Assembly (NCBI GenBank): GCA_039914895.1 | Contig: JBDSOJ010000244.1 | Location: 1-39,527, forward strand | DNA: 39,527 nucleotides | Source of the DNA: Gaiellaceae bacterium | Lineage (GTDB): Bacteria; Actinomycetota; Thermoleophilia; Gaiellales; Gaiellaceae | Reading direction: 5' to 3' | Shown: positions 324 through 26,807 of the stretch, piece by piece | Numbering within the stretch: the stretch's first letter is position 1 | Layout: the number at the start of each line of letters is the position of its first letter | The notes under the pieces: model-generated | Seen by the model: only the letters and a program-made list of their open reading frames with translations | Databases searched by the model: none | Told to the model about the DNA's origin: nothing | Program-made: the position numbers and the translations under genes

Positions 324-495
324 AGAGCGGATGATGGGACTCGAACCCACGACCTTCTGCATGGCAAATGTGCGCACGCGTTCGCGCCCGTTCGCACCCG
401 TTCGCTCAACAGCCTGTTTGCAGGGGATTGCGTCGGTGCGAGCGAACGTCAACGCACCTGAGCGAACCACGAGTGTGACCATTGTGACCACGCGG
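324..495 (-). repeat. att-like direct repeat, copy 1: 3' part of tRNA-Gly(GCC) (324-367) plus a conserved arm of about 128 nt
   Basis: 324-367 is identical to 39401-39444, which runs from the anticodon stem/loop to the 3' end of the intact tRNA. 368-495 aligns by eye at roughly 85-90% with 26681-26807. Shared elements are three CGTTCGC at exact 10-nt phasing (379, 389, 399), inverted GCGAACG copies, and GTGTGACCATTGTGACCAC at 473-491. Confidence 0.8.
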
Positions 496-509
496 CTTAG
501 GCTGAACTG

Positions 510-815
510 TCACTGAGTTCTCCCGATATTCGGGAGCTCGTTGAAGCTTTGAGGAGTGACGACGCCCGGCCGTGGCCGGACGACCCGCTGTTTCCGACCA
601 GCCGACGGTCGATCCGCCACGCCTGGCTCACCGATCTGATCGGATAGATCCATGCGGCCTCGCGGAGCACTGAGCGCGGCCTCGCCGGCGAGCGCGGCCG
701 CGGCGACTGCCGCGACGCTTGCGGCCGCGGGCCCAACGGGAGGCTCGGCGAAGCGCTGCGCGAGCAGCCAGCCCCAGACGAGGCCGAGCGCGATCCCGCC
801 CGCGAGCGGGATCAC
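510..815 (-). CDS. Hypothetical small protein, possibly membrane-associated
   Basis: A GTG-started ORF begins 29 nt downstream of the 844-1365 gene. The N-terminal half is hydrophobic (IPLAGGIALGLVWGWLLA, AAASVAAVAAAALAG) with GC3-rich codons. The C-terminal half has weak codon bias and runs through a hairpin (CTCCCG-ATATT-CGGGAG, 520-536), so its extent is uncertain. Confidence 0.3.
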   Translation of the reverse strand: MIPLAGGIALGLVWGWLLAQRFAEPPVGPAAASVAAVAAAALAGEAALSAPRGRMDLSDQIGEPGVADRPSAGRKQRVVRPRPGVVTPQSFNELPNIGRTQ

Positions 816-843
816 GCGCCGCGCCTCCGGGGCCTCGCGTCCA

Positions 844-1365
844 CTACTCGGCGAGCGACTTCAGCGCCTCGAGCTCCGCCAGCCACTCCTTTTGGGCCTG
901 CCCGAGCGCCGCGGTGCGCTCCTTCGCCTGCACCTCCTCGTCGGCGACCGCGGCGCGCGCTGCAACGAGATCGGCCCCAAGCGTCTGGTCCCTGTGCGCG
1001 GCCGCCTGCAACTCCTCACCGGCCATTGCCTCCTCGAGCGCCTTGCGCTCCACTGCACGCTCGCGTTCCAGCCGCTTTGCCGAGGTGACCAGCTCACCGA
1101 GCACGTCGGCGGCACCGGCGGCGAGCTGGGCGAAGCCCTGCGTCACGGTCTCACCGAGCGACAGCTCGCCCCGCGTCCGAACACCGCGCACGTCCGGAAC
1201 GGTCAGCACCGTCCCCGGCCGCAGCTTGTCCAGGTCGATGTCCGGGTTCGCGGCCCGCACGGCGGCCGCGACGTCCCGGGCGACGGCGGGCGAGACCCTG
1301 CCCGAGAACAGTCGGGGGCGCAAGGCTGCGAAGTTCTTCTCGGTGCCTACGACGACGACGGGCAT
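844..1365 (-). CDS. Hypothetical protein with a LysM/tail-protein-X-like N-terminus and a coiled-coil C-terminus; last clear gene of the operon
   Basis: Only the last 173 codons of track ORF 844..4344 look real. The ATG is at 1365, preceded by GGAGGA. The N-terminus carries ANPDIDLDKLRPGTVLTVP, and the C-terminal half is Ala/Glu/Leu/Lys heptad-like. The gene starts 24 nt after the stop of the 1047-aa gene. Confidence 0.6.
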   Translation of the reverse strand: MPVVVVGTEKNFAALRPRLFSGRVSPAVARDVAAAVRAANPDIDLDKLRPGTVLTVPDVRGVRTRGELSLGETVTQGFAQLAAGAADVLGELVTSAKRLERERAVERKALEEAMAGEELQAAAHRDQTLGADLVAARAAVADEEVQAKERTAALGQAQKEWLAELEALKSLAE

Positions 1366-1388
1366 CGTTTCCTCCAGTGTCGAGCGGG

Positions 1389-4300
1389 TCAGGGCACGAT
1401 CGGGTTCAGCTCGCTCCACGGTCCGGGCAGCCCGGCGCCCGGCCCGCCGAGGTGGGTGCCGCCGCCGGTCAGGTTGCCGACCGCCGCGAAGCGGTTCTCG
1501 ATGGTCTCCAGGACGAGCATGGCCTTGCCGCCCCGGATCCGGTTCGACGAGGCGATGATCGACGAGCTGCCGAGGACGAAGGCGCTTTGCTCCCCCTGCT
1601 CGCCGTGGGTGCACTGGTTCGCCTCGGCGACGATGTCGCCGCGCACGCGGATCAGGCAGGTGGGCCGGCTGCCGCCGCCGGCCAGCGTGTTGGACGCGAC
1701 CGTCACGTGGTCGCCCCGTGCAGGCGCCGCGAATCCCCAGAGCCCGTTGAGGACGAACGCGTTCTCGCCCACCGGCACGACGGCCTTGCCGGCGGCGACG
1801 CGCACGAGCTCCCGGCCGGCCGAGTGGACGAGGAGCGCGTACCAGTCGCCCTGGGTCGGGAAGGCGTCCCCGGTCGCAAAGCGAACGGAGTTGCCGGTCA
1901 GCGCGACCCGGTCGAACGGCCCGACCACGACCACGCCTGCTGCGACCCCGAGGAAGCCGTCCTGCGGCCCGATCTCGGCCACGACGTTGCCGTCGATGCG
2001 GACGTCGCCGGAGGCGGTCACCAGGATGCCTGCGCGGACGCGGCCCTGGGCGAGCCTGCGGCCGACCCGCTGGACGGTGTTGCCGAGCACGACGGCCGAG
2101 CCCGCCCGGGAGAGCGCGATCCCGATCGCGGAATCGGTGACGTCCTCCGCCATCGCGACGTCGAACAGCTCGTTGTTGTCGACGGCGACCCGCTCGGCCG
2201 CTCCCTGGCCCTCGATCGCGATCCCGTCGCCGACGTCGGTGAGGACGTTCTGCTTGACCATGAACGTCCGCACGGGCGTTCGCAGTGCGATCCCGGTTCC
2301 GGAGCGGTCGTGGACGCGATTGCCCGTGATGCGCACATGCCCGGGCGCCGCCTGGATGCCGCCCGCCGCGACGACGATCCCGTCGGAGCCGCTTCCCCCG
2401 CCGAAGCGGTTGACGACGTTCGACTCGACGGTGGCGTCGGAGCCGACGACGATCCCCGCGCCGGACGTCGCCACCTTGTTGCCGGCGACGTCGAGCGTGC
2501 CGCCCGGCGCGAGCACCCCGGTCGCGACGATCCCGCCGCTGCGGCCGGCGAGCACCTCGTTGCCCGTCACCCGGCACGAATAGAGGTAGGCGGCGCGGCC
2601 GCCGAGGTCGATCCCCCGCTCCAGCCCGAAGACCACGTTGTCCTCGACGCGGAGCCCCGCCGCAAACAGGCCGATCTTGTCGCCCGCACCGGCATCGATG
2701 GCGGTGCGGCCGATCAGGACGTTCCGTCGCAGCGTCACGAGCAGGCCCACGCCGCCCAGCTCGATCGCCGAGCCGCCCGTCTCCGTCGAGCCGTACGAGA
2801 GGACAACGAGGTCGTTCACGCTCGTCTTGACGACGCTGCGCAGGCGGACGGCCGCCGGCGTCCCGACGCCGCTCACGATCGACATGCTCTCCACCGCAAC
2901 GGCGAACGAGCGCGTGACGGTGAGCGCGGTGCCGCGCGCGACGAGGACCGTAGCCGGCCCCTGGCCGCGGAGACGCAGCGAGCGAGCGCCGTCGACCGCG
3001 ATCCCGGCGTCGACGTCGTAGACGCCCGCCGCCAGGCAGACCGTGCCGCCGACCGCTTTGACCTGGTCGACGGCCGCCTGGATCGTCAGCGCGCCGGAGG
3101 CGTGAGTCTCGGGCGTGACGCAGACCGTGCAGTCGCAACCCTCGTCCCCGGTCGCGAGCGGCGGCCAGAGGCGCCGGCAGTCGGTCTCCGCGTCGGGGAA
3201 GGTCACGAGCCCGAGTCGCGCATAGTGGTGGTGCACGCCGAGCGGCGGCTCGGCGTCGAGCAGCTCCACCGACGTGTCCGCCGTGCGGGCGGCGAACACC
3301 CAGTGGTCGCCGGCGCGGAACAGGCCGCCCGTCGACGCGACCGCGAACGACCCGACGATCCCGTGCTCGAGGACGACCTGCGTCGACGCGGCCGAGGGCA
3401 CCGTGATCAGGCCGGTCGTGCCCTGGTCGAGGTCGACGAGCGTCGCTCCGGCACCGCTCTTGACGACGCCCGACTGATCCCAGCGCCGGACGCGCAGGTG
3501 CCGCGCGGCCGCGGCGGCGGCATTCGCCGGCTGGAGATCGGCCGGGAGCGCGCCGGTGAACGCGATCGTGCGGGCCGCATCGTCGACGGTGACCTTGCGC
3601 AGCACGCCCGGCTTGCCGTCGAGCTCGTAATGGTCGTCCAGGATCTCGACCCAGTCGCCGGTCGACACGCGCAGCACATCGTCGCGGCCCACGGAGGCCA
3701 GGCGCAGCAGCGTCGAGGACACCATCTCGACCACCGGCTGCGCCACCGAGCCGTTGTCCCGGGACCACTTGAAGGTTGCCGTGCCCGGCGCGCCGCCCTC
3801 GTGGATCTCGACACGGTAAGCCTGGTTCTCGAGCCCTCGGTAGCCGGCGCTCGGCGGCAGCTCGCAGGGATCCTCGTCGTCCGCGACCTGGACCGTGTCC
3901 GTCGTCAGCCGGCCCGCCGACGGTGCGATCTCGTCGAGCCAGCCGGGGATGTCCTCGTCGTCGGAGGCACAGGTCGCCCCACCCACGTTCGGCAGGAGCC
4001 GCACCTGCCAGGCCGTCTGCAGGCGCGCGGTGGTGTCGACCCCGACTGCGACCTCGACGAGATCCGGAGCCTCGAGGTGCGTGACCTCGCGCTGCCACAC
4101 GTCGAGGTAAACGAGGTGCGGGCCCCCGCCGGGCAGCGATGCGGGCGTCTTCCAGTAGGGCTGCTGGTCGTAGGGGGTGTCGACAGTGCCGGTCTGCTCG
4201 TGGAGCAGCGGGTCGAAGCCGAGCTCGGGGAGCCCGTGGTTCTCCGCGAGCAGCCCGTCGACGTACATGCGCCCGCGGCCGATCGTCAGCTGGCCGCCGG

Positions 4301-4532
4301 AGGCCGAGACGCGAAACGCGTCGGGTGTCTGCCGGGGCACCCACGCGACTCCCTGGTGATCGGGATCGGGGCCTAAGGAGGTCAGGTCGCTGGTCTCGGC
4401 GCGCAGCCGGCGGTCGAGCATCGCCACGTACTCGTTGAAGTCGCCGTCGAGCAGCAACCTGCCCTGCTGCAGGACCACGCCCGCGAAGTCGCGGAGCGGG
4501 TCGAACCTCACCCGGCTGACGTCGGCACCCAT
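1389..4532 (-). CDS. DUF6519-like N-domain fused to a right-handed parallel beta-helix (PbH1 repeats); fibre/tailspike-like distal component
   Basis: The N-terminus MGADVSRVRFDPLRDFAGVVLQQGRLLLDGDFNE matches my memory of the DUF6519 start motif. The C-terminal half has more than 10 repeats of the NxVxG...GIxL type (VEDNVVFG, VTGNEVLAG, VAGNKVATSG, ITGNRVHD, VKQNVLTD, VLGNTVQR, IDGNVVAE, LTGNSVRF). GAAGGAGGA lies upstream of the ATG at 4532. Confidence 0.8.
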   Translation of the reverse strand: MGADVSRVRFDPLRDFAGVVLQQGRLLLDGDFNEYVAMLDRRLRAETSDLTSLGPDPDHQGVAWVPRQTPDAFRVSASGGQLTIGRGRMYVDGLLAENHGLPELGFDPLLHEQTGTVDTPYDQQPYWKTPASLPGGGPHLVYLDVWQREVTHLEAPDLVEVAVGVDTTARLQTAWQVRLLPNVGGATCASDDEDIPGWLDEIAPSAGRLTTDTVQVADDEDPCELPPSAGYRGLENQAYRVEIHEGGAPGTATFKWSRDNGSVAQPVVEMVSSTLLRLASVGRDDVLRVSTGDWVEILDDHYELDGKPGVLRKVTVDDAARTIAFTGALPADLQPANAAAAAARHLRVRRWDQSGVVKSGAGATLVDLDQGTTGLITVPSAASTQVVLEHGIVGSFAVASTGGLFRAGDHWVFAARTADTSVELLDAEPPLGVHHHYARLGLVTFPDAETDCRRLWPPLATGDEGCDCTVCVTPETHASGALTIQAAVDQVKAVGGTVCLAAGVYDVDAGIAVDGARSLRLRGQGPATVLVARGTALTVTRSFAVAVESMSIVSGVGTPAAVRLRSVVKTSVNDLVVLSYGSTETGGSAIELGGVGLLVTLRRNVLIGRTAIDAGAGDKIGLFAAGLRVEDNVVFGLERGIDLGGRAAYLYSCRVTGNEVLAGRSGGIVATGVLAPGGTLDVAGNKVATSGAGIVVGSDATVESNVVNRFGGGSGSDGIVVAAGGIQAAPGHVRITGNRVHDRSGTGIALRTPVRTFMVKQNVLTDVGDGIAIEGQGAAERVAVDNNELFDVAMAEDVTDSAIGIALSRAGSAVVLGNTVQRVGRRLAQGRVRAGILVTASGDVRIDGNVVAEIGPQDGFLGVAAGVVVVGPFDRVALTGNSVRFATGDAFPTQGDWYALLVHSAGRELVRVAAGKAVVPVGENAFVLNGLWGFAAPARGDHVTVASNTLAGGGSRPTCLIRVRGDIVAEANQCTHGEQGEQSAFVLGSSSIIASSNRIRGGKAMLVLETIENRFAAVGNLTGGGTHLGGPGAGLPGPWSELNPIVP

Positions 4533-4554
4533 GTCCGTCCTCCTTCTCGATCCG

Positions 4555-12593: not shown

Positions 12594-12594
12594 T

Positions 12595-12758: not shown

Positions 12759-12761
12759 TGG

Positions 12762-14771: not shown

Positions 14772-14774
14772 GAC

Positions 14775-15425
14775 CTAGATCCCCTCCAGCCCGAGCGAGG
14801 AGAGCTCAACCGACCGGGCGCGGCCCGCCAGGCTCTCCTTCGTCCGCAGGTAGCCCATGAAGAGCGTTCCGCCGCGGTGCCGGAAACCCAGGTCGTCGAC
14901 CGAGAGCACGCGCAGGTCGAGGTCGACCCTGGCTCGGATCGGGTTGAGCGCCGCGTCGAAGGCCTCCTCAGTGACCGACAGGCCCGTGACGCGCACCGGC
15001 ACGACCCGCTGCTTGCTCCAGACGAAGAGCGTGAGCGGCGCCTCCAGCGGCAGCACCTCGAGAACGCCGGAGGCCGCGAGCCCGTCGTTTCTCTGCAGGT
15101 CGTCGGCGCGCGGATGGACGAGAGTCTCGAGCACGGCCAGCTGCGGATGGATCCCGAGCCCGACCGCATCCGGATTGCCGGTCGGATCGGCCAGACGATC
15201 GGTCGCGTCAATCTCGGCCGCGAGCTTGATCGTCTCGACGGCCGCGCCCTTGAGGCGCAGCGCCTGCGAGCGGTCGCCTCCGTCGCTTCCGCTCGCCTGC
15301 ACCTGGAGCGTCCGCGTCAGCGTGTCCGGGTTGTACTGGAGCGCGATCACGCCGAGCACGCGCGCCGTGTCGGGATCGACCTGCACGAGGCCGGCCTTCA
15401 GGAGGCGGGGCGAGAACGGGGTCAC
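14775..15425 (-). CDS. CIS tube-like protein (tube initiator, Afp5/Afp7-position)
   Basis: The protein is 216 aa. The segment LTLFVWSKQRVVPVRVTGLSVTEEAFDAALNPIRARVDLDLRVL matches the conserved F.WG....PV.I.S.SI.E..F...L.P.RA.V.L motif of CIS tube/initiator proteins. The GTG at 15425 overlaps the upstream stop. Confidence 0.7.
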   Translation of the reverse strand: MTPFSPRLLKAGLVQVDPDTARVLGVIALQYNPDTLTRTLQVQASGSDGGDRSQALRLKGAAVETIKLAAEIDATDRLADPTGNPDAVGLGIHPQLAVLETLVHPRADDLQRNDGLAASGVLEVLPLEAPLTLFVWSKQRVVPVRVTGLSVTEEAFDAALNPIRARVDLDLRVLSVDDLGFRHRGGTLFMGYLRTKESLAGRARSVELSSLGLEGI

Positions 15426-17785
15426 GGCTTACCCTTCGCCGACTCGAGCGGCCGCTCGACGACGTAGAGCTTGGACTGATCGCACGGATCCTTGAGCCCG
15501 ACGACCTCGTCCGACCTGATCTCGCGCAGCTTCTCGTTGAGGGTGACGCGGGTGCAGAGCCCCGCTAGACCGACGATGCGCCACTCGGCCCCGACGCGTG
15601 CGATCTTGGGGAACCTGCCGCTGAGATCCGCCTGGGCTTTGGCCGCGATCTTTGGATCCTTGGAGGTGACCTTCCTGGTCAGGCCGATCGCGATCTTGGC
15701 GACGTCGTTGAACTCCTCGGCAAGCTTGGCGTGCATCTGCGGTTCCGACTTGCGCCCCGAGCCATGCCCGAGGAAGACGTCGCCGCCCTTCGGCTCGCGG
15801 CGGACGAGCACTGCATTCTCGAGCCGCCAGGCGTTGCCGATCCGCTCGTTGATCAGGTCGTACCCGAGGTGGTTGAAGAACACCACGTGGTCGCCGACGA
15901 TCAGATCGCGTACCGAGCTCGGAGCCACACGCTGGGTGCTCCGAAGCCCGGGCTTCGCCACGGTTCCCTTGCCGACGATCGCCTCGTAGACGATCGGGTG
16001 GAGGTCGGTGAAGGCGTCATACCGCAGCCGGATCTTGTCCGCCCCAAATGCGGCGATTCGCTTATTGAACTCGGCCTTGCCAACCGAGTCGGCGAGCGAC
16101 ATGAAGTGGACAATCGAGATCAGGTAGTCGCAGTGCAGCAGGGTGCGGCGGTGCGGCTGCTCCGGCACGAACAGGAAGGCGATCGCGCTGTACGGGTCCG
16201 CCTTGCCCTTGTCGGTCAGCAGCCACGAGTAGTCGCCCATGTCGCCGTAGACACGGAAGCGCTCGTGACGCGGCAGGTCGAGCAGCGCCTTGTTCTTCGC
16301 CTTGTCCTTGCGCAGCGCGTAGTCGTCCGGCGGGAGGGGCTTCCAGAAATCACGGGCCGCGTAGTTCACCCTCGGGCCGTAGAGCACGGCCGGCCCCGAG
16401 AAGGGGTAGCCGAACGCGCTCCGCTTGTCACCGGGCACCTTCTCGACGGTCTGCTGCGACTCGACCGTGTGCTCGGCCGTCGCCACCCGCTTCACCAGCT
16501 CGGACGTCAGCTCCCCCTCGTCCGTGAAGTCAAACGTGTCGCCGGCGTCGGCCATGTCGTCGAGCACCGACCGGGCAAGCGCCTTGCTTGCCCACTTGCG
16601 CGCCGCCAGGAAGGCCCCGCGCTGTTTCGGCGGCATCTCAACGCCCTTCACGACCACCTTTCGCTGGATGGGAGACGCGTGCCCGTCGCGGCCGCGCAGT
16701 GGCGACGCGGACTGCTGCGCCACGTGTGCTAGCTCATGCGCGAGCAGGTGATGGCCGGCGTGGCTCGCGGGCGCGTATCGACCTGCGCCGAAGACGACGT
16801 CCTCGCCGACCGTGAACGCGGCCGCGTCGAGGCGAGCTGCCCCTGCGGCCGCTCGCGCGTCGTCGTGCACACGGACGCGCGCGAAGTCGTAGCCGAAGCG
16901 CGCCTCCATCGCGCGGCGCGTGGAGGGGTCGAGCGGGCGGCCGGGCGTCGCGAGCGCGTCGTCGACGTTCGCGTAAGCGGGAGGCGCCGCCGAGGGCGAC
17001 GCCGGAGCGGGCTGGGCGGGCGCCTTCTCCTCGTCCTGCTTCGGCGCGTCCGTCTTCAGCGGGATCGTGAAGCCGGGTAGGCCCTTCTGTCGCGCGAGCC
17101 ACGCAGCCACGGCCTCGTCCTCCTGCTGCTTCTGCGCGGCCTTCTCGCTCGCCGGGCGAAACATCTCCTCCTGCGCCTTGAGCCGCGCGATGTCGGCGGC
17201 GATCGGGTCGGTCTTCTTCGCGCCCTTGCCCTTCTGGCCCTGCTCCCTGACGGTGATCGTGAGGCCGACGAACGTGGGCTTGTTGACCGGCCCCTCGTAG
17301 GTGACCTGGGCCGAGACGCCCGCCAGCTTCGGCCAGAGCTTCTCGAGCGGGAGCTCCGGCGGCTGGATCGGCAGCTCCTTGCCGGTCGCAGCGAGTGCGG
17401 CCACGCCGCCGGCCAGCGCCGTCCCCGTCACCGCGAGACCCACGGGCGAGGTGATCGCGTCCGTGACCGTCTTCACGAGGGGGTCGGCGAGCACCTTCTC
17501 CTTCACCGCCTGGCCCTGCGGCGTCTTCAACGCCGCCTCGCCGGCCTTCTTCAACGCCTCCTTCTTCTTCTCGTCGTCGGTCTTCTCCTTGACCGCCTCC
17601 TGGCGCTGCACCGGCTCGGGCGCGGAGGCGGGCATGGTGGCGAACGACCAGCCGGCCACGCTGCCGCCGCGCGTAACGACGTCCGCGGCGTGCTCGGCCT
17701 CGCGCTCGTCCCGGTCGTGCGGCCTCGAGACGGGCCGCGCAGCCGCCTTCCCGGCGCGCGCGGCCTGGGCGGGCGTCCTCGTCAC
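15422..17785 (-). CDS. DUF4157 (PVC-type metallopeptidase-like) domain protein with a C-terminal domain of unknown family; putative CIS cargo/effector
   Basis: The likely start is the GTG at 17785, overlapping the stop of the 93-aa gene; the track ORF extends to 17932. The leader is PHDRDEREAEHAADVV. The DUF4157 core is RRAMEARFGYDFARVRVHDDARAAAGAARLDAAAFTVGEDVVFGAGRYAPASHAGHHLLAHELAHVAQQ, which contains HExxH. The last 400 aa or so are Lys-rich and encoded by visibly less GC-rich DNA. Confidence 0.85.
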   Translation of the reverse strand: MTRTPAQAARAGKAAARPVSRPHDRDEREAEHAADVVTRGGSVAGWSFATMPASAPEPVQRQEAVKEKTDDEKKKEALKKAGEAALKTPQGQAVKEKVLADPLVKTVTDAITSPVGLAVTGTALAGGVAALAATGKELPIQPPELPLEKLWPKLAGVSAQVTYEGPVNKPTFVGLTITVREQGQKGKGAKKTDPIAADIARLKAQEEMFRPASEKAAQKQQEDEAVAAWLARQKGLPGFTIPLKTDAPKQDEEKAPAQPAPASPSAAPPAYANVDDALATPGRPLDPSTRRAMEARFGYDFARVRVHDDARAAAGAARLDAAAFTVGEDVVFGAGRYAPASHAGHHLLAHELAHVAQQSASPLRGRDGHASPIQRKVVVKGVEMPPKQRGAFLAARKWASKALARSVLDDMADAGDTFDFTDEGELTSELVKRVATAEHTVESQQTVEKVPGDKRSAFGYPFSGPAVLYGPRVNYAARDFWKPLPPDDYALRKDKAKNKALLDLPRHERFRVYGDMGDYSWLLTDKGKADPYSAIAFLFVPEQPHRRTLLHCDYLISIVHFMSLADSVGKAEFNKRIAAFGADKIRLRYDAFTDLHPIVYEAIVGKGTVAKPGLRSTQRVAPSSVRDLIVGDHVVFFNHLGYDLINERIGNAWRLENAVLVRREPKGGDVFLGHGSGRKSEPQMHAKLAEEFNDVAKIAIGLTRKVTSKDPKIAAKAQADLSGRFPKIARVGAEWRIVGLAGLCTRVTLNEKLREIRSDEVVGLKDPCDQSKLYVVERPLESAKGKP

Positions 17786-18063
17786 CGCTCGGCCCTCCCG
17801 GAGAGCGCGCCCCAGACGGCGCCGGCCACGGCCCCGCCGAGCGCCGCCGGCGACGCGGCCGGCGCGTCGACGGCCGGGAGCCGGCGGAACGCCTCCGCGC
17901 GCGGAGCGAGCGTGGCGCCGGAGCGCACCCACTGCTCGGCGAGCAAGGCCAGCTGCGCCTCGAGCGCGGCCACCGCTGCACGGGCCTGCTCCGGCGGGAC
18001 GCCGCGGAGCACCACTTCGTCCACCACGAGCTCGAGCCGCCCAGGGATCATGTCCGCGCTCAC
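17782..18063 (-). CDS. Small hypothetical protein (93 aa) coupled to both the ATPase and the DUF4157 gene
   Basis: GTGA overlaps occur at both ends (18063/18060 and 17785/17782), with an alternative ATG at 18051. The sequence contains GRLELVVDEVVLRGVPPEQARAAVAALEAQLALL. I recognise no family. Confidence 0.55.
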   Translation of the reverse strand: MSADMIPGRLELVVDEVVLRGVPPEQARAAVAALEAQLALLAEQWVRSGATLAPRAEAFRRLPAVDAPAASPAALGGAVAGAVWGALSGRAER

Positions 18064-19988
18064 GTCAGGCCCGCCGTCTCCGCCGCGGTCAGCGGCCGCT
18101 CCGACTTGGCGTACTCGACCTGCGCGGCGCGAAGCACGTGCGCCGGGGTCACCGGCGTCCCCTGCTCGGCGGCCCCGAACGCGGCCGAGAGGGCGATCGC
18201 CCGAATCGACCCGCCGGGTAGGGTCAGCCGCGCCAGCCGGTCTGGGTCGACGCCCTCGAGCGGCGTCGCCGCGGGGAAGACGCGCCGCCAGATCTCGGCG
18301 CGCTGTCCGGCGTCCGGGAAGGGGAACTGAACGACGAAGCGCAACCGCCGCAGGAACGCTCGGTCGAGGTTGCTGCGCAGGTTCGAGGTCAGGATCGCAA
18401 GCCCGCGATACGACTCCATCCGCTGGAGGAGATAGGCGACCTCGAGGTTCGCGTAGCGGTCGTGCCCGTCCCTCACCTCGCCGCGCTTGCCGAACAGCGC
18501 GTCCGCCTCGTCGAAGAGGAGGACGGCCCCGCCGGCCTCGGCGGCGTCGAACAGGCGACGCAGGTTCTTCTCGGTCTCGCCGATGTACTTGCTGACGGTC
18601 GCCGAGAGGTCGATCCGGTAGAGATCGAGCTCGAGGTCGGCTGCGAGCACCTCCGCGGCCATCGTCTTGCCTGTGCCGCTCTCACCCGTGAAGAGCGCCG
18701 TGACGCCGAGCCCGCGGGCGCTGCGCTCGCCGAAGCCCCAGCGCTCGTAGACCTGGGTGCGGTGGCGGACGTGGCGGGCGACCTCGCGCAGCAGCTCCGT
18801 CTGGCCGGCGGGCAGAACGAGCTCGTCCCAATTCGCCGTCGGCTCGATGCGCTCGGCGAGGCCGTCCAGGCGGACGCGGGCGCGCTCACGGCAGAGGCGC
18901 CTGAAGGTCACAGGGAGGTCGACTCCGTCGGCCGACGACGACAGCTCCCGCACGACGGCGTCGACGGCCGCGGCACCGAGCCGATAATGCTGCGCAGCCT
19001 GCTCCACCTCGGCTTCGAGGGTCTTCGAGAGGTCTGCTCCGAGGCTGCGGCGCCAGAGCGCGCGCTGCTCGGCCGGCGAGGGCAGCGCCACAGAGCGGCG
19101 GAGCTCGACCCGGCCCGGGATGCGCTCGTCGTGCTCGCCGACGAGGACGACGAGCGGGCTCTCGAGCAGATCGAGCAGGGCAGCGACCGCGGGTTCGCTC
19201 CCGCGTTCCGCGTCCACGACCGGGAGTCCGTTGAGCAGCAATGCCTCGCGGTCGACGAGCCGAGCCAGCTCCGCGAGCTCGGGTCCGGGCGGCGGCAGCG
19301 CCTCGGCGCGAACGAGGAGCGTCAGGCGCTCGAGCTGGGCGGCGAGCTGCTGTGCGACGCCCAGACGCGCCTCGGCGTCATCGCCCTCGAGGCGCACGAC
19401 GACCGGGGCGCCGGTGCCGGCCGCGGTCCGGGCGAGCTCCTCCCCCAGCTGTCGTTGTGACGGCGTCAGCGATGGCGACCCGAAGGCGGTCCGCAGCAGC
19501 CCGTCGAGGCGCGGGTCGGGCGAGGGCATCCCCGTCAGCTGCTGGAGCACGCGCTCGTCGAGCTGCAACCGGCGGCTCGCCAGCGTCGGCCCCGGCCCCA
19601 ACTCGAGCAGCCGCCAGCGACGGAGGGGCGAGCGGAGAGACAGAGCGCTCCAGTGCGGGTCCGGCAGGGCGGTCAGCGCCAGCCCGAAGGTCGGCCGCGG
19701 ATCTGCGGCACCGAGCAGCTCGGCGGCAAGCAACGCGACCTCCCCGTCGAGCTCGACGGCAGCGCAGAGGAGGAGGAGCTGCCGCTCGAACGGCGACAGC
19801 CCGAGCAGCCGAGCGAGCCGGTCGGCGGCCGGTTCGATTGCCGGCGGCTCGCCTGGGTCGCGCCGCGGCGGTGCTTCTCCGTCGCGGTAGGCGAGAAGCA
19901 GCGCGCGCGCGTGCGCGATCTCGCCGGACAGCCACTCCTGTTCGAGCTCGACGTACGTGAGCTCGAGCCGCTCGGCCACGGCGGTCAT
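18060..19988 (-). CDS. AAA+ ATPase (Afp15-like CIS assembly ATPase)
   Basis: The real start is the ATG at 19988, overlapping the cap-gene stop (ATGA); the track ORF runs on to 21308. The protein has Walker A GESGTGKT and Walker B LLFDEADALF, followed by SNLRSNLDRAFLRRLRF. Confidence 0.9.
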   Translation of the reverse strand: MTAVAERLELTYVELEQEWLSGEIAHARALLLAYRDGEAPPRRDPGEPPAIEPAADRLARLLGLSPFERQLLLLCAAVELDGEVALLAAELLGAADPRPTFGLALTALPDPHWSALSLRSPLRRWRLLELGPGPTLASRRLQLDERVLQQLTGMPSPDPRLDGLLRTAFGSPSLTPSQRQLGEELARTAAGTGAPVVVRLEGDDAEARLGVAQQLAAQLERLTLLVRAEALPPPGPELAELARLVDREALLLNGLPVVDAERGSEPAVAALLDLLESPLVVLVGEHDERIPGRVELRRSVALPSPAEQRALWRRSLGADLSKTLEAEVEQAAQHYRLGAAAVDAVVRELSSSADGVDLPVTFRRLCRERARVRLDGLAERIEPTANWDELVLPAGQTELLREVARHVRHRTQVYERWGFGERSARGLGVTALFTGESGTGKTMAAEVLAADLELDLYRIDLSATVSKYIGETEKNLRRLFDAAEAGGAVLLFDEADALFGKRGEVRDGHDRYANLEVAYLLQRMESYRGLAILTSNLRSNLDRAFLRRLRFVVQFPFPDAGQRAEIWRRVFPAATPLEGVDPDRLARLTLPGGSIRAIALSAAFGAAEQGTPVTPAHVLRAAQVEYAKSERPLTAAETAGLT

Positions 19989-21298
19989 GCCGGCACCGTC
20001 ACGGACTGCGCCGGATCGAAGGCAGGCGGCTCCGCCGTCCGGTCGACGAGGAGGCTCTCGACTCCGTCCACGGTCAGCCGCACCCACTGCGCGCCCGGTG
20101 GGACGACGCCCAGCTCGAAGGTCAGCGTCGAGGCTGCCGCCGGGTGGGGCTCGGCGAGGGCGGTGTCGCCGCCGAGGGTGAGGCGTGCCTCCTGCGCGGG
20201 CCGCACCTGGGGTGCGACGTCGAGCGTGACGGTCACGCGCCCGGTTCCGGCATCGCGGGTGACGGTTGTGGGCGGCAGGTCGGGCTCGGGCGCGAGCAGC
20301 AGCGCGGCCACGTTCGACTCGCGAGGGTCGATCTCGCCGGGCCGGACGAGTGAGACCGTGACCGTGTACAGGCCGGGCGGCAAGGCCTGCTCGGCGGCTG
20401 CTCCGGACGGGAGAGTCACGTCGATGCCGGTGCGGTCGGCGTTCGCGCCCACTACGAGCTCGTGCGACTGGTCGAGCAGGCGGTGGGCGAGCCGCACCAC
20501 GGTCGACGTGCCGTCGAGATGGTGGCCCGCGAGCCGCACCGTCTCGCCGAGACGGGCGGCGGGCTGGCCGGCCGACGGAACTGCGCGCTCGACAGTCGGG
20601 TACGGCGGCACGAGGCTCGGCTCGACGACGACGCCGCGATCGCGACCGGTGGGGAGGTCGACCGGGCCGCGCGACATGACGGGGAGCGGCGTCCGCGACG
20701 GTTTGCGCGCCTCGATCAGCACGACCGACACGAGATAGGCCGCGGTCGGCCGGTAGTGGGCCTGCATCGCCGACCACAGCCGCGACAGCTCCTCCGTGTC
20801 CATCGGCTCGAGCGTCACGGTGAGCGCCTCCAGCTGGTCGGCGAGGTCGGAGGCCGTGAGCGCCTGGAACGCCGGCGGTAGGATCGACGGGCCGAGCGGG
20901 CTCGGCTCGAGCGCCGTACGGATCGCCGCGCGGTCGAGCACGGGGCGCTCGTGGAGCAAGTGCATCGCGTAGCCGAGCAGGATCTCGGCCTGGAAGTCGG
21001 CTGCGCCGTAGGCCGTGAGCAGGTAGTGCAGGTCGAGCGCCAGCGGCGGGTTGGTCAGCCTCGCGCCGTTGCCGTCGTACGCGGGGAGCTCGGCGTTCCG
21101 CCAGCCCTGGTTCGGGCTGGTGCGGTAGAGGAAGAGGTTGAGCGAGGGGGGCGCATCCGGCTCGTCGAGCTTGATCGTGTCCGGGGCGACGGCGGTAACA
21201 GCGACGGAGCCCAGCGGCGCGCCGACGTCGACGAGGCCGTTGTCGAGCAGGTTCCGGAGCACCGCGCTCACAGCACCGATCGCCAATGGGCTGCTCAC
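19985..21298 (-). CDS. DUF4255 (Pvc16/Afp16-like) tail terminator/cap protein
   Basis: The N-domain carries AVSAVLRNLLDNGL...PPSLNLFLYRTSPNQGWRN...PPLALDLHYLLTAYG, the hallmark of DUF4255. The GTG at 21298 overlaps the upstream stop. Confidence 0.85.
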   Translation of the reverse strand: MSSPLAIGAVSAVLRNLLDNGLVDVGAPLGSVAVTAVAPDTIKLDEPDAPPSLNLFLYRTSPNQGWRNAELPAYDGNGARLTNPPLALDLHYLLTAYGAADFQAEILLGYAMHLLHERPVLDRAAIRTALEPSPLGPSILPPAFQALTASDLADQLEALTVTLEPMDTEELSRLWSAMQAHYRPTAAYLVSVVLIEARKPSRTPLPVMSRGPVDLPTGRDRGVVVEPSLVPPYPTVERAVPSAGQPAARLGETVRLAGHHLDGTSTVVRLAHRLLDQSHELVVGANADRTGIDVTLPSGAAAEQALPPGLYTVTVSLVRPGEIDPRESNVAALLLAPEPDLPPTTVTRDAGTGRVTVTLDVAPQVRPAQEARLTLGGDTALAEPHPAAASTLTFELGVVPPGAQWVRLTVDGVESLLVDRTAEPPAFDPAQSVTVPA

Positions 21299-21987
21299 GG
21301 GCCACCACGCTCGCCGCGCAGGTAGTCCGACAGGGACAGAGCGTCCTCGCCCGCGGGTTCGCGCTGCTGCGGCCGAGCCGGCGCCTCGTCGTGGAGATTC
21401 GCTCGGACTTCGAGCCGGCCGATCCGAATGTGCACCGTCGGCTGATCCGGAGCGGGCGCGCTCCGGGAGGAGCGAATGGCGGCGGCCGTGAGGATGGCCG
21501 GAGCGGCCGGCGCCGGCGACGCCGCGGCGGCAGCGACCGCGGGATTGGGTGGATCGAGAACCTCGATCAACCCCTCCACGGGGTTGGCGACGGTCGGTTG
21601 CGGCTGCTCGCCCACCTCGCCTCCGACGTCGACCGACGCGTCGAGCACCGGCGTCTGTGGCTTCGCGGCCCGCCGCGGTTCCGGCGCGGGCTGAGCCACG
21701 CTGCGCGCTTGGCGTCGAGGTGGGAGACGCACCGGGTTTGCCGCTACCGCGCTCCCGTCCACGACCGGACCGTAAGTAGCCGTCGGCTCGAAAAGCGGCA
21801 TTCGCACCGGCCGGCCGGATTCGCCGGGCGCGCTGCGGGGAGCCGGTGCCACGACCTCGTCCTCCGCGACCGCCAGCGCGGACGTCGAGTCCGAGCCGGG
21901 ATCCTCGAACAGGGCGGGCAGCCGAGGTTGGGCCACAGGGGCCTCGCCGACGGCGCGGGCGGCCATCCGTGCGATGAAGTCAGTCAC
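21295..21987 (-). CDS. Hypothetical Pro/Ala-rich protein; candidate (short) tape-measure/assembly protein
   Basis: The protein is 230 aa. Its N-terminus is TDFIARMAARAVGEAPVAQPRLPALFE and its C-terminus is TVHIRIGRLEVRANL. It has a low-complexity middle, and GTGA overlaps at both ends. The functional call rests only on position and on remembered end motifs. Confidence 0.5.
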   Translation of the reverse strand: MTDFIARMAARAVGEAPVAQPRLPALFEDPGSDSTSALAVAEDEVVAPAPRSAPGESGRPVRMPLFEPTATYGPVVDGSAVAANPVRLPPRRQARSVAQPAPEPRRAAKPQTPVLDASVDVGGEVGEQPQPTVANPVEGLIEVLDPPNPAVAAAAASPAPAAPAILTAAAIRSSRSAPAPDQPTVHIRIGRLEVRANLHDEAPARPQQREPAGEDALSLSDYLRGERGGP

Positions 21988-22724: not shown

Positions 22725-22735
22725 CGTCCTCGCGC

Positions 22736-23257
22736 CTACGGCTCGGAGAACTGCGGCTCGGTGGGCTCGGGCACTTCGTAATCGCGCTCCCAGCCCTCAT
22801 GCTCGAGCTTGAGGGTCTGGATCGCCACGGCGTTCGCGTTCGCGTCCAGGTCGGGCAGGCCCTGGTACTCCGAGACCCAGGCCCGGTAGACCTTGTACGC
22901 GACGACGAGCTGCCCCGCCTCGTTGTAGACGTCGATGATCATGTCCTTGCGGAAGTCCTTCAGCGAGACCTCCGCCCCGAGCCCCGACCCGAAGTTCCAG
23001 ACCTTGTTGGCCCACGACTCGAACTCCGTGTCGTGCGTGACGCCGCGCTCGAGGGTGATCGCCTCGTACTTCGTCCGACCGGGCGACTTCCGGCTGGTCG
23101 ACGGGTCGCCGCCCTCACGATGCTCGACCACCTCGGTCGTGCGCTTCAGCGCGCCCACCTTGCTCACGCCGGCGACGTACCGGCCGTCCCACTTGACCCG
23201 GAACTTGAAGTTCTTGTAGGGGTCGAAGCGCTGTGCGTTGACACTGAACTGGGCCAT
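22736..23257 (-). CDS. Tail tube protein (T4 gp19 / Afp1-like)
   Basis: These are the last 173 codons of track ORF 22736..24820. The protein starts MAQFSVNAQRFDPYKNFKFRVKWDGRYVAGVSKVGALKRTTEVVEHREGGDPSTSRKSPGRTKYEAITLERGVTHD, the classic gp19-like tube signature. The ATG shares one base with the sheath TGA at 23257. Confidence 0.9.
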   Translation of the reverse strand: MAQFSVNAQRFDPYKNFKFRVKWDGRYVAGVSKVGALKRTTEVVEHREGGDPSTSRKSPGRTKYEAITLERGVTHDTEFESWANKVWNFGSGLGAEVSLKDFRKDMIIDVYNEAGQLVVAYKVYRAWVSEYQGLPDLDANANAVAIQTLKLEHEGWERDYEVPEPTEPQFSEP

Positions 23258-24786
23258 CATGCGCTCCCCGTTTGGCCAGCCATCTGCTGGAGCTTGAGCA
23301 CGACGAACTCCGCCGGCTTCAACGGCGCGAAGCCGACGATGATGTTGACGATGCCGAGGTTGACGTCGTCCTGCGTGGTCGACTCGGCGTCGCACTTGAC
23401 GAAGTACGCCTCCCGCGGCGTGGTCCCCGCGAACGCGCCCTGCCGGAAGAGGTTGTTCATGAAGGCGCCGACGTTGAGCCGGATCTGCGCCCAGAGAGGC
23501 GCGTCGTTCGGCTCGAACACGACCCACTGCGTGCCGCGATAGAGCGACTCCTCGAGGAAGAGCGCGGTGCGGCGCACCGGTAGGTACTTCCATTCCGAGG
23601 TCAGTCGATCCGACCCCTCCCGCGTCCGCGCACCCCAGACGACGTGACCCGCTGCGGGCGCTGCGCGCAGGCAGTTGACGCCGAGCGGGTTGAGCCGGCC
23701 GATCTCGAGATCGGTGAGCGGCACGGCGAGCTCTGCGACGCCGCTCAGCGTCGCCTCGAGGCCGGCGGGTGCCTTCCACACGCCGCGGGTGGCGTCGGTG
23801 CGCGCGATCACCCCCGCGATCGCCCCCGCCGGCGAGAACGTGCCGAGCTGGTCGTCCCGGAGCGGGTCGAGCTGGCGGATGCGCGGGAAGTACACGGCCG
23901 CGTTCTTGCTGCTCGTGAAGGAGGCCGCAGTGGCGCCCGTCTCCGCGTCGCCGATCGTCAGCCACGCGGCGGGCGGACCCATGACGACCACCGCGCGACG
24001 CTCGGTCGCGTACGAGATCGTGTCCGCGAGCACGTCCGAGTCGACGTCGTTGCCCGCCGTGTACGGCGGCACGACGACGAGGTTGACGAGGTCGACCTTC
24101 TCGAGCGCATACAGGCCCTTCTTGTTCGCGCGCAGGTTCGCGCCGGTCGTGTAGAGCAGCTTGTCCAGCGGGTTGCCGTCGTTCCCGTTCGCGGCTGCCT
24201 GGGTGACGGGGAAGGACGACTGCGGTTGCGTCGGCAGCGCGCCGGTCATGCGGACGAGCGTCGACTCCGCGGCGAGCACGAGGTCGACGCGGCGCGGGCT
24301 CCCGACGGCGAAGGACACGTTCCGGAAGACCTCGGTCTTGCCCATCACGGGATCGCTGTCCGTCACGGTGAGGTTGAACAGCGTCGCGTCCGAGGTGTCC
24401 TTGACCTGATCGTCGATCGTCGCGTCCAGCTTCAAGCCCCAGGCGCCGGGCGATGCGGCCTCGAGGGCCACCTGACGGGTGCCGGCCCCAAGCGAGATCG
24501 ACGCGGTGTCGTTCGCCTTCGGCTTGTGCACCCGCACGACGATCGCCATCGAGCCGCCGTGGCGGTAGAAGTCGCGGACGGCGTAACCCAGGGTGCTCTC
24601 GACCCAGAGCCCCCCGAAGATCCGTTCGAAGTCGGCGTACGACGTGATCGTCACCGGCTCGTCGATGCGACCTCGCAAGGCGCTTCCGACGAAGGCTGTG
24701 ATCGAGGTCGCAACCCCGGTGATGGTGCGGACGCCGCTCGGGAGTTCCTCGACGTAGACACCTGGATAGGTCAGCGTGCTCGGCAT
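23257..24786 (-). CDS. Contractile tail sheath protein
   Basis: I prefer the start at ATG 24786 (MPSTLTYPGVYVEELPSG) because GAGGAGGAGG lies 4-13 nt upstream; the track ORF starts at 24813. TYPGVYVEE is the sheath N-terminal hallmark, and the C-terminal region is GLNPLGVNCLR...GHVVWGARTR. Confidence 0.92.
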   Translation of the reverse strand: MPSTLTYPGVYVEELPSGVRTITGVATSITAFVGSALRGRIDEPVTITSYADFERIFGGLWVESTLGYAVRDFYRHGGSMAIVVRVHKPKANDTASISLGAGTRQVALEAASPGAWGLKLDATIDDQVKDTSDATLFNLTVTDSDPVMGKTEVFRNVSFAVGSPRRVDLVLAAESTLVRMTGALPTQPQSSFPVTQAAANGNDGNPLDKLLYTTGANLRANKKGLYALEKVDLVNLVVVPPYTAGNDVDSDVLADTISYATERRAVVVMGPPAAWLTIGDAETGATAASFTSSKNAAVYFPRIRQLDPLRDDQLGTFSPAGAIAGVIARTDATRGVWKAPAGLEATLSGVAELAVPLTDLEIGRLNPLGVNCLRAAPAAGHVVWGARTREGSDRLTSEWKYLPVRRTALFLEESLYRGTQWVVFEPNDAPLWAQIRLNVGAFMNNLFRQGAFAGTTPREAYFVKCDAESTTQDDVNLGIVNIIVGFAPLKPAEFVVLKLQQMAGQTGSA

Positions 24787-24813
24787 GCAGCCTCCTCCTC
24801 GTGTGCCCGGCAA

Positions 24814-25054: not shown

Positions 25055-25092
25055 CAGACGAATGGTGCTAGGTCGCCGTCACCGGATCGTCT

Positions 25093-25839
25093 TCAGCGCG
25101 TCAACGGCCTGACGAGCTCCTCGAGCTGCGGTGTCGGCTCGAGGCCGAGGCGATCGCGCAGCAGGCGTCGGCAGAGCTCGTACTGGCGGAGCGCCTCGCA
25201 GGCGTTGCCCTCGGAGAGGTGAACCCGGATGAGCACGCGGTGCGCGCTTTCGCGCAGCGGCTCACCCGCCACCGCCGCCAGCGCAGCCTCGAGCGCCGGT
25301 CCGAGACGTCCCGCCGCGATGAGCCGGTCGGCGAGCCCCTCGAGCGCGTGGAGACTCACCTGCCGGAACCGCTCGCGCTCGAACAGCACCCAGTCGTCGT
25401 ACCAGCCGGGCAGCAGCTCGCCGCGCAGCACGGGGTCGGGGCCTGAGAGATCCTCGCCGCGAGCAGAACCGGCCAGCAGCCGGTGGGCGAGCCGGAAGGC
25501 GGACCGAAGATCCACGTCCACGTCGGGAGCCAGGCGCAGATGCGTGCTCGTGCTCTCGACGAGCCGGAAGCCGGGCCGGTGCAGGCGCCAGAGCGACGAG
25601 CGCAGGCTCGCCGCCGCCCGCTCGTCCGAGGCATCCGTCCAGAGCGTGCCGGCCACGTAGACGCGCAGGAGCGGGTGCTCGTGGAGCGCCACGAACGCGA
25701 GCAGCCGCTGCGCGCTCAGCGGCAGGCCGACCGTCTCGCCGCCGCAACGAAGCTTGAAGGCATTGAGCAGCGAGAGCGAGGTTCGACCGTGCCGCCGGAG
25801 CCTGTCCGCGCGCTCGCGAGTGGGCGCGGCGGAGGTCAC
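25093..25839 (-). CDS. SARP-family (AfsR/DnrI/RedD-type) transcriptional regulator: OmpR-like winged helix plus BTAD
   Basis: The winged helix is LSAQRLLAFVALHEHPLLRVYVAGTLWTDASDERAAASLRSSLWRLHR. The BTAD is GELLPGWYDDWVLFERERFRQVSLHALEGLADRLIAAGRLGPALEAALAAVAGEPLRESAHRVLIRVHLSEGNACEALRQYELCRRLLRDRLGLEPTPQ. Confidence 0.88.
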   Translation of the reverse strand: MTSAAPTRERADRLRRHGRTSLSLLNAFKLRCGGETVGLPLSAQRLLAFVALHEHPLLRVYVAGTLWTDASDERAAASLRSSLWRLHRPGFRLVESTSTHLRLAPDVDVDLRSAFRLAHRLLAGSARGEDLSGPDPVLRGELLPGWYDDWVLFERERFRQVSLHALEGLADRLIAAGRLGPALEAALAAVAGEPLRESAHRVLIRVHLSEGNACEALRQYELCRRLLRDRLGLEPTPQLEELVRPLTR

Positions 25840-25941
25840 GAGGACGGGCTCGGCAACTCAGCGAGCCGGCGGCGCCGCAGAAACGAGTTGGTGGAGCACA
25901 TGGGCGACAGGCCCCTCGGTCAGCTCTCGTTCCTGTAGGCC

Positions 25942-25971
25942 ACCCTACGGCAGGCTCACGCCACGAGTCAA
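25942..25971 (-). promoter_or_regulatory. Candidate sigma-70-type promoter for the SARP gene
   Basis: On the minus strand, TTGACT (25971-25966) is separated by an 18-nt spacer from TAGGGT (25947-25942). This lies about 100 nt upstream of the GTG at 25839. Confidence 0.35.
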
Positions 25972-26112
25972 GCGCCGTTCCTCGGGTCTCGGATCGGCCA
26001 ATCTCGGCTAGAGCCGCTCGCGGCACGTCGCCTTCCGTGAGGGCGCCGCCGAACAGCGTCACGGTCCTCGTGATGCACCGGTGTGCACGGACACCGTTTC
26101 TATGCCAGCAAC

Positions 26113-26169
26113 GCGGCAGGTGGCTCAGCAAGAGCTGCAGGAGGTCGCGGGTTCGAGCCCCGTCGCTCC
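26113..26169 (+). repeat. Degenerate/chimeric tRNA-like fragment (D-arm-like plus T-arm plus acceptor 3' strand; anticodon arm missing)
   Basis: The sequence is GCGGCAGGTGGCTCAGCAAGAGCTGCAGGAGGTCGCGGGTTCGAGCCCCGTCGCTCC. Its last 30 nt match 58-87. The 5' and 3' acceptor strands are not complementary. Confidence 0.5.
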
Positions 26170-26277
26170 GGCCTCTTATAGTGCCTGGAAATGGCGATCT
26201 GTTGAACGCGAGGGCACCCGGCACGGGCGCCAATATCGGTGCGCCTCTCCATGGCGCGAGGGCTGGGAGATCGGCGG

Positions 26278-26480
26278 CATGGCCTTCTCGTTGCTCTACG
26301 TCGCCGTGCGGGCTCTGCTCAGCGCGCTTGTTCGTAGCCGTCGGGGCTCTGTTGGCGGCCGCAGCATGCCATCTGCCGCGCTCGTCGCGTGGCGTGCTTC
26401 TGGTGACTCCACGGACCTTCTGCGCTGGTCCGATCGCGCCCAAGCTGTCGGGTTTGACTCTGGCCACGTCGCAACAGGCC
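26278..26480 (+). pseudogene. Remnant of an IS481-type transposase N-terminus (frameshifted)
   Basis: MAFSLLYVAVRALLSALVRSRRG is followed, in shifted frames, by LLVTPRT and LLRW. This resembles the usual actinobacterial start M..LLYL....L..LL.RS...(LRHQ)...LVTP.TLL.WHR. No catalytic domain follows. Confidence 0.35.
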
Positions 26481-26637
26481 AATCCGGCAGGTGGTCGCTG
26501 ACCCGCTGCCGCTGATCACCTCGCTCAAGCCCCCGTTGCTGCTGGCTTGTAACAGGCGAATCCGCCAGGTGTGACCATGTGCTTGCGCCTGTTTCCTGTG
26601 AAGACGACAAAAACACCGATCTAGCAGGGATGTTCGA

Positions 26638-26807
26638 AGCGGATGATGGGACTCGAACCCACGACCTTCTGCATGGCAAGTGAGCGCAAGCGTTCGCGCC
26701 CGTTCACGCCCGTTCGCTCAACCGCTCTTTTGCAGGTGATTGCGTCGGTGCGAGCGAACGGGCGCGAACCCGAGCAAACCACGAGTGTGACCATTGTGAC
26801 CACGCGG
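26638..26807 (-). repeat. att-like direct repeat, copy 2: tRNA-Gly 3' part (26638-26680) plus a conserved arm abutting the integrase stop
   Basis: The core is identical to the tRNA 3' part. The arm carries CGTTCGC/CGTTCAC/CGTTCGC at 26691, 26701 and 26711, and GTGTGACCATTGTGACCAC at 26785-26803. It ends 2 nt before the integrase stop codon (26809). Confidence 0.8.

Follow-up and report, generated by a model that had tools for sequence, protein, structure and literature searches.

How did a whole operon for an extracellular contractile injection system (eCIS) come to lie between two direct copies of a tRNA fragment, and could it move from there? The question is raised by a 39,527-nt stretch of DNA from a Gaiellaceae bacterium (contig JBDSOJ010000244.1 of assembly GCA_039914895.1, taken at its full length and called the window below). 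A preliminary description had noted repeats on either side of the operon, each with a tRNA-Gly 3′ core and an adjoining arm, and had taken the operon for cargo of an integrase-less segment that a neighbouring recombinase might mobilise in trans. The operon does lie inside a segment bounded by attachment (att) sequences and free of any integrase, but the neighbouring recombinase is a truncated remnant. The account that we regard as probable is one of site-specific accretion of islands at tRNA-Gly followed by decay, which would have left the eCIS on an integrase-less island resembling a cis-mobilizable element (CIME).

A tandem array of islands at tRNA-Gly

The window has a single tRNA-Gly(GCC) gene, intact and on the minus strand at 39402/3-39476 (ARAGORN; Rfam, 72.4 bits), which appears to be the integration target. 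A repeat search of the window found four direct copies of its 3′ part on the same strand: core copy 1 at 323-367, copy 2 at 26635-26679, copy 3 at 31643-31687 and copy 4, at 39400-39444, in the gene itself. The copies have the orientation of the tRNA and lie downstream of it, as do the direct repeats that bound tRNA-targeting islands. Their identity begins at tRNA position 32, in the anticodon loop, which agrees with the start first proposed; it is exact over 42 nt between copies 1 and 2 (326-367 and 26638-26679), over 45 nt between copy 1 and the tRNA gene (323-367 and 39400-39444) and over 43-44 nt for copy 3. A weak tRNA match also lies over copy 1, at 326-385. In the sense of the tRNA, the contig reads tRNA-Gly, island C (31688-39399), core 3, island B (26680-31642), core 2, island A (368-26634), core 1 at the distal end of the array, and a flank of 322 nt. 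Every island opens directly behind a core, with a hairpin resembling a terminator and two short direct repeats, and closes on a longer arm directly ahead of the next core. The earlier picture of one island bracketed by repeats was therefore sound as to its att boundaries but incomplete: it did not list the core at 31643-31687, and the array has three islands.

The repeats around the eCIS operon, described as about 170 nt long, lie at 326-495 and 26638-26807. Their arms (368-495 and 26680-26807, both on the minus strand) are identical in 113 of 129 aligned columns (87.6%, with 2 gap columns), within the 85-90% that had been estimated by eye for an arm of ~128 nt, and a longer ungapped repeat covers 259-502 and 26571-26814 at 80% identity. 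Distal to the cores, 259-322 and 26571-26634 are 66.7% identical, where random 64-mers from the window give 53.4 +/- 3.9% with a maximum of 63.2%; the likeness reported between the right ends of the segments is thus weak, though above chance. The sequence GTGTGACCAT occurs exactly at 473, 26569, 26785 and 31564 and at no other place in the window, all four sites lying in att arms, and allowing up to one mismatch gives 5 matches in the window against 1.19 expected. The arm of copy 2 ends at 26807, beside the stop codon (26809-26811) of an integrase-like open reading frame (ORF), just as the preliminary description had it; what comes next after copy 1 is an ORF with its stop at 510-512.

The injection-system operon in island A

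Island A carries a complete eCIS gene set with a BTAD regulator (Pfam), in a conserved minus-strand operon at 846-25839. The families recognised are PF04984/PF17482, PF06841, PF04717, PF04865 (twice), PF00004 with PF22977, PF13699 and PF19266, and the operon is syntenic with related loci (L001, L002, L008, L020 and L050; L numbers denote the loci and contigs compared). From the regulator side, it encodes the sheath (23257-24813), the tube (~22736-23250), an AAA ATPase (18060-21308), the eCIS_core (DUF4157) protein (15422-17932), a tube-like protein (14775-15425), the spike (12762-13286) and a DUF6519/beta-helix fibre (1389-4532), with two baseplate-J proteins (the two PF04865 matches) also in the operon and a conserved last gene at 846-1365 that was recognised from synteny. 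Synteny with the closest relative (L002, sheath 85% identical) ends at 25779, and synteny with L020 and L008 (72-83% nucleotide identity) ends at ~1160-1205. The gaps between operon and arms measure ~350 nt (496-845) and ~730 nt (25840-26567, from the regulator gene to the arm) and are apparently non-coding: the shorter one has a non-conserved ORF at 510-815 on the minus strand, and the longer one shows no coding signal by blastn, GC3 periodicity or Pfam, with broad tblastx of 25800-26640 giving only high-GC noise. Neither gap has a trace of an integrase. The eCIS operon nearly fills island A.

At both of its ends the island keeps an att sequence. The integrase-type arm (368-495) has two intact TGGTCAC units, a mutated middle GTTCGC unit and no adjoining integrase; the tRNA-proximal arm (26568-26634, minus strand) has a degenerate terminator-like sequence, TTGTCGTCT and a single TGGTCAC (GTGTGACCAT at 26569-26578), and is 67% identical to the corresponding arm of island B. 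Two properties of a CIME are present: attL and attR are retained, slightly degenerate, with TGGTCAC on both arms and homology to integrase-associated arms (L004, L006 and island B), and Pfam and the integrase hidden Markov model (HMM) found no integration or transfer genes in island A. The description of the locus as cargo of an integrase-less segment fits these findings.

Two details of the operon itself may be recorded here. An insertion of ~165 nt at 12594-12761, between the spike and the next baseplate gene, has imperfect terminal inverted repeats (TAGTGCTCCCCGCCG...CGGCGGGGAGCACT) and resembles a miniature inverted-repeat transposable element (MITE); it is missing at the same spot in L020, L008, L017 and L011, and no second copy was found in the window or the compared loci. 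The ORF at 18060-21308 (minus strand, 1082 aa) corresponds to two genes in L001, L050 and L051, for a Pvc16_N protein of ~437 aa and a WHD-AAA protein of ~640 aa, as would be seen if the two genes had fused or if a start or stop had been missed.

The integrase remnant of island B

Could a neighbouring recombinase move island A, as the preliminary description supposed? The ORF next to the arm of copy 2 (26809-27480, minus strand) does have integrase homology, and in this it had been read correctly, but what it holds is a 5′-truncated remnant. By tblastn, integrase sequence is confined to 26815-27243, equivalent to residues ~245-386 of 387-aa homologues; these ~142 C-terminal residues match positions 239-380 of 383 in the family HMM and 82-169 of 172 in PF00589. 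Homologues span 64% of the ORF as a query, and its first ~80 codons are unrelated to them. Full-length integrases of the family have 365-391 aa, with Phage_int_M/SAM-like and catalytic domains. The remnant keeps the HxxR motif and the tyrosine; the Arg-I box (AGLRxSEALGLRW in homologues) and both N-terminal domains are gone. An integrase reduced to residues ~245-386 cannot mobilise anything, so the proposed trans-mobilisation of the eCIS locus by its neighbour falls. Pfam scans of candidate ORFs found no other recombinase in the window, and neither tblastn with full-length homologues nor the family HMM found an integrase remnant beside arm 1 in island A. As to an integrase of its own, such as a tRNA-targeting island would carry, island A has none, island B the C-terminal remnant and island C none.

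An excisionase-like gene had also been proposed upstream of the integrase. The ORF in question (27552-27758, minus strand, 68 aa, island B) has a helix-turn-helix (HTH) and an AlpA/Xis-like look by eye; in Pfam it reaches only a sub-threshold match to HTH_23 and it has no similarity to the HTH_17 genes found upstream of related integrases (L003, L004 and L006), and the Xis assignment was dropped.

Truncated family integrases were also seen elsewhere. The remnants (26815-27243 in the window, 67-495 in L046, 9821-10564 in L006 and 2906-3589 in L005) all keep the C-terminal part that faces the arm, spanning the HMM from about 166-246 to about 380, which suggests that the integrases decayed through deletions from the island interior. 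The closest integrase, that of L005 (87%), has no arm downstream, and L003, with a full-length integrase at tRNA-Val, has no distal core within the locus. A phage origin was considered and rejected: the nearest phage-type integrases (of pMLP1, Ms6 and MooMoo) are only ~26-27% identical, the arm motif does not occur in IMG/VR, and no phage in the collection has the core as its attP.

A family of attachment sites

In islands A and B the long arm has a set order of parts: a heptamer pair, three GTTCGC-type units, a spacer with CTGCAAA, three inverted GCGAAC-type units, ~10 nt and then the core. The heptamer is specific to the element and the same on both of its arms. It is TGGTCAC in island B, twice on the integrase-proximal arm (26680-26807) and twice, within GTGTGACCATTTTGTGACCAC and beside a terminator-like hairpin, on the tRNA-proximal arm (31563-31642, minus strand); TAGTCAG in island C, twice on each arm; TGGCAAC in L004; and TGCCCAC in L006. 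The island C pairs (CTGACTA on the complementary strand) stand at 39315-39332, in the tRNA-proximal arm with its terminator-like hairpin (39313-39401, minus strand), and at 31796-31814, in the core-adjacent arm (31688-31814). Island A has TGGTCAC twice on its core-adjacent arm and once on the other. Paired heptamers of this kind are the pattern that would be expected of putative arm-type binding sites co-evolving with their integrase.

The arms of the window are 74-76% identical, over 159-178 nt, to att junctions in two loci that have integrase genes. In L004 a tRNA-Gly(GCC) is followed by an HTH_17 gene, a frameshifted integrase gene, ~300 nt with a 73-aa ORF, the arm and a 51-nt tRNA repeat, the whole island measuring ~11 kb. 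L006 has four core copies at a tRNA-Ala(CGC), and a truncated integrase gene lies ~650 nt upstream of the arm of the first internal core, with an acetyltransferase gene in between; its arm aligns to those of the window despite the different core.

Metagenomes were searched with a degenerate arm pattern, seeded with the arms of decayed elements, and 26 contigs matched; the pattern is absent from IMG/VR. A core directly follows the arm in 22 of the 26, from tRNA-Gly in 16 (badly degenerate in L030) and from tRNA-Val(GAC) in 6. L044 has the arm architecture with no core after the arm, and four contigs that show no arm architecture (L032, L033, L039 and L043) are probably chance matches to the motif. 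Integrase-less segments in tandem arrays are found repeatedly: in L025 three Gly cores delimit segments of 4.7 and 2.4 kb, L048 has a tRNA and two cores, L037 four Val cores, and L006 the four Ala cores mentioned above. L024 has two cores and one core-bounded, integrase-less segment. The cargo of the motif loci is diverse and includes cyclase-AAA_16-TPR proteins, a PD40 protein, ACT with an M55 peptidase, LuxR regulators, YkuD, PGA_cap and an aquaporin.

Some further arms were seen along the way. The arm family of island C (TAGTCAGG twice, with GTCGGCTG-type units) also precedes a tRNA-Gly core in L034 (250-424), and a third tRNA-proximal type, with GAGTCCC twice, occurs in L025, L034 and L048; together with the TGGTCAC type, this makes at least three arm specificities on one tRNA-Gly core. 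At ~4200-4260 of L024 (oriented coordinates) an arm-type unit has expanded to seven tandem AATGGCTGC.

Related injection-system loci and composition

Where do the relatives of this operon sit? Six related eCIS loci were read into their flanks, up to 10 kb as the contig allowed, on the sheath side in L001, L002, L050 and L052 and on the fibre side in L008 and L020. No tRNA, core or arm was found in the flank read at any of the six. These operons (~72-83% nucleotide identity) are flanked by mutually different ordinary genes, and the synteny between L020 and L008 breaks off shortly beyond the operon. Related operons thus occupy other loci, an outcome that the preliminary description had suggested looking for, and the att-bounded setting is peculiar to the contig of the window. 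Two related eCIS contigs, L050 (26.5 kb) and L051 (25.0 kb), start 160-620 nt upstream of the regulator gene and are about as long as the operon. It may be that assemblies are prone to end at the edge of the operon, and this would agree with repeats or strain variation at that point; the available ends of the two contigs contain no att sequence.

The contig has no host core genes; composition was compared with the flanks of related metagenome-assembled genomes (MAGs). Island A has a GC content of 0.723, and its tetranucleotide profile correlates at r 0.96-0.99 with chromosomal flanks of related MAGs (GC 0.706-0.72). Island B (GC 0.642, tetranucleotide r 0.90-0.95) and island C (GC 0.672) are the ones that look foreign.

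How the array could have formed

Taken together, these observations point to the following history. Elements of one tyrosine-integrase family, and an element C with a different arm type, would each have carried an attP composed of an integrase-side arm, a 42-45-bp core (the tRNA from position 32 to its 3′ end) and an arm with a terminator. Each integration would rebuild the tRNA and leave a pseudo-tRNA core distally, so successive integrations would yield the array tRNA - C - core - B - core - A - core. The recombination modules would have decayed later: island A keeps its arms and cores with neither int nor xis, island B the last ~142 integrase codons and island C none. To exit by site-specific recombination, island A would need a cognate integrase for its TGGTCAC arm sites from elsewhere in the genome, an enzyme that might then mobilise it in trans. 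Homologous recombination across the ~170-nt repeats might, at low frequency, delete the island as well.

Several observations weigh against this history. Neither an empty site nor a circular junction nor a second copy of island A came to light, and the best sheath match in the collections, at 85%, is too distant to show an empty site; that the island integrated as a unit is therefore an inference. Island A contains no traces of int, xis or other element genes, its arms are partly degenerate (one TGGTCAC where two would be expected on the tRNA-proximal arm, one GTTCGC unit lost), and it is not compositionally foreign to the lineage. The contig was assembled from a metagenome, and the joins at its repeats are known from that assembly alone. 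Finally, one segment of L048 has mismatched arms, GAGTCCC-type against TGGCTGC-type, which means that segments can be hybrids formed by deletion.

This last point leads to an explanation in which island A was never one mobile element: a deletion or homologous recombination in a longer array would have fused the arms of two elements, and the eCIS would be cargo of a larger element or have entered the array by another route. The degenerate tRNA-proximal arm and the lineage-like composition of island A would fit such an origin, as would the recurrence of integrase remnants truncated on the 5′ side (in the window, L046, L006 and L005) and the sharp, context-independent boundaries of related eCIS operons. 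Set against these are the same TGGTCAC unit type on both arms of island A and the mere ~350 and ~730 nt of non-coding DNA between operon and arms, with no other gene remnants, and we think a hybrid origin unlikely. A different proposal is an active but non-autonomous cassette system: selection would keep the units of arm and core, and a family integrase encoded elsewhere would, as a matter of routine, excise integrase-less segments such as island A and insert them again, the tRNA serving as an integron-like platform. The 26 motif-seeded loci include no full-length family integrase and a single C-terminal remnant, a proportion biased by a search that was seeded from decayed elements; for ~13 real arms, 1.5 kb or more of upstream sequence is available. 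Across contigs the arm architecture and the heptamer pairs show good conservation and the cargo is diverse, as the proposal would have it, but an identical cassette was not met with in a second context (the metagenome loci gave nothing beyond collinear duplicates that came from different samples), no intact cognate integrase came to light, and pseudogenes in islands B and C, like the degenerate arms of island A, speak of decay. Active exchange of this kind seems to us doubtful. Its general form, a widespread class of integrase-less cassettes in soil Actinobacteria that a dedicated tyrosine-integrase family shuffles in trans at tRNA-Gly, tRNA-Val and tRNA-Ala, would be a long shot; if true, the tRNA would be an integron-like capture platform that exchanges whole operons, up to a 25-kb injection system, and co-varying heptamer pairs on both arms would decide which integrase moves which cassette.

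An artefact has also to be considered. The assembler could have joined segments of different genomes at the 42-45 nt of conserved tRNA-Gly sequence; the window is an entire contig from a metagenome and ends 50 nt past the tRNA, and its segments differ in GC (0.72, 0.64 and 0.67 for A, B and C). Each junction, however, has the full series of arm, core and arm, the real 5′ half of the tRNA never appears at an internal core, and the same tandem structure recurs in independent assemblies (L006, on a 391-kb contig, L025, L037 and L048). The exact repeats of 42-45 nt are also shorter than the k-mers with which assemblers usually finish, and a chimera is very improbable. Still further from the mark is a dispersed, multi-copy repeat of repetitive extragenic palindromic (REP) or MITE type, unrelated to integration, an outcome that the preliminary description had named as fatal to its proposal. 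The inverted GTTCGC/GCGAAC units inside the ~170-nt unit are all that would recommend it. In the window the arm occurs only beside tRNA cores, and elsewhere the visible arms, all but one, stand directly before a tRNA-Gly, tRNA-Val or tRNA-Ala 3′ core in the same orientation; this placement leads us to reject a dispersed repeat almost entirely. Folding counts against it as well: with the arm viewed as a structured element or terminator, z against shuffled sequences was -0.08, -3.2, -0.6 and -0.7, too inconsistent to uphold such a structure.

If accretion and decay at tRNA-Gly is the right account, the locus offers a candidate route by which an eCIS operon may have passed between Actinobacteria, carried by a tRNA-Gly integrative element whose integrase was lost later. 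A so far uncharacterised family of integrases and att sites also comes to light, with legible arms and element-specific paired heptamers; in soil metagenomes it forms tandem arrays at three tRNA genes.

Other features of the array

Apart from the integrase remnant, the interior of island B (26808-31562, GC 0.64) has an Abi_C gene (30608-31366, plus strand) and a UvrD_C helicase fragment (27817-28668, minus strand). Island C carries a split alpha/beta hydrolase gene, a gene for a GH5-NHL beta-propeller protein and a zinc-ribbon/cyclase/AAA_16 gene in fragments. Broken genes are thus present in both: the UvrD_C fragment in B, the split hydrolase and the split cyclase-AAA_16 gene in C. No genes of ICEs (integrative and conjugative elements), their actinomycete counterparts (AICEs) or prophages (FtsK/Tra-type, relaxase, replication, capsid or terminase) were found among the Pfam-scanned ORFs, a scan that did not exhaust the small ORFs.

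Beyond core 1, the flank at 259-322 (minus strand) is weakly like the tRNA-proximal arms (TTGTCGTCT, CATGGGCAC), and would be either the native downstream region of the tRNA or the rest of a fourth island. Further out, at 44-88 on the plus strand, lies a tRNA-Asp(GTC)-like 3′ part that runs from the anticodon loop to the acceptor end with a G53 to A change; it lacks a 5′ half, is followed by a hairpin and is not called by ARAGORN or Rfam. Positions 1-90 had been considered as an RNA family, and none was recognised; the tRNA-Asp 3′ fragment is what they proved to hold. The fragment is probably an att remnant of a second island array, convergent with that at tRNA-Gly, in which case 89-322 would be the sole ancestral DNA of the contig. 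At its other end, the contig stops 50 nt past tRNA-Gly.

Comparison with known systems

As an injection system, the operon belongs with the actinobacterial eCIS loci, such as the Streptomyces CIS of the Afp/PVC-type superfamily: the gene set is the same, and the sheath is 63-68% identical to Streptomyces proteins. It differs in its place, an att-bounded segment of a tRNA island, which was seen in none of the flanks read at the six related loci. The integron is not a match: there is no intI or integrase at the head of the array, the junctions are tRNA cores with long arms, and the folding of the arms is inconsistent. The att sites themselves recall arm-site-dependent tyrosine integrases that act at tRNA 3′ ends (lambda-type attP arms, mycobacteriophage L5, Ms6, pSAM2 and pMLP1). 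Shared with these are a core made of the tRNA 3′ part from the anticodon loop, short direct arm repeats and the order of HTH gene, int and attP; on the other side, integrase identity is ~26-27%, no phage in the collection has this core as attP, and the window has no phage structural or replication genes.

The accretion of islands and their decay to CIME-like elements is well known, and an eCIS as cargo is uncommon; the worth of this locus lies in description more than in concept. Both the concept of a CIME and the accretion of islands in tandem are established, as in the ICESt1/ICESt3 family of Streptococcus and the Streptomyces pathogenicity islands (reviewed in PMC5704250). Like a CIME, island A is bounded by att sites, has no integration or transfer genes and shares the 3′ end of a single target gene with decayed elements arranged in tandem. 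Unlike those systems, the array in the window has no functional partner and no conjugation genes, its cargo is a ~25-kb eCIS, and island A is known from sequence alone. The tandem ssrA islands of Dehalococcoides, many of which lack an integration module and have been read as possible CIMEs or fixed islands (PMC3146451), are similar in having multiple direct repeats of the target-gene 3′ end downstream of it and extra conserved sequence beside the repeats. Those islands depend on a serine recombinase and a 20-bp ssrA repeat, whereas the array at tRNA-Gly belongs to a family of tyrosine integrases, with a tRNA core of 42-45 bp and, in its long arms, paired heptamers.

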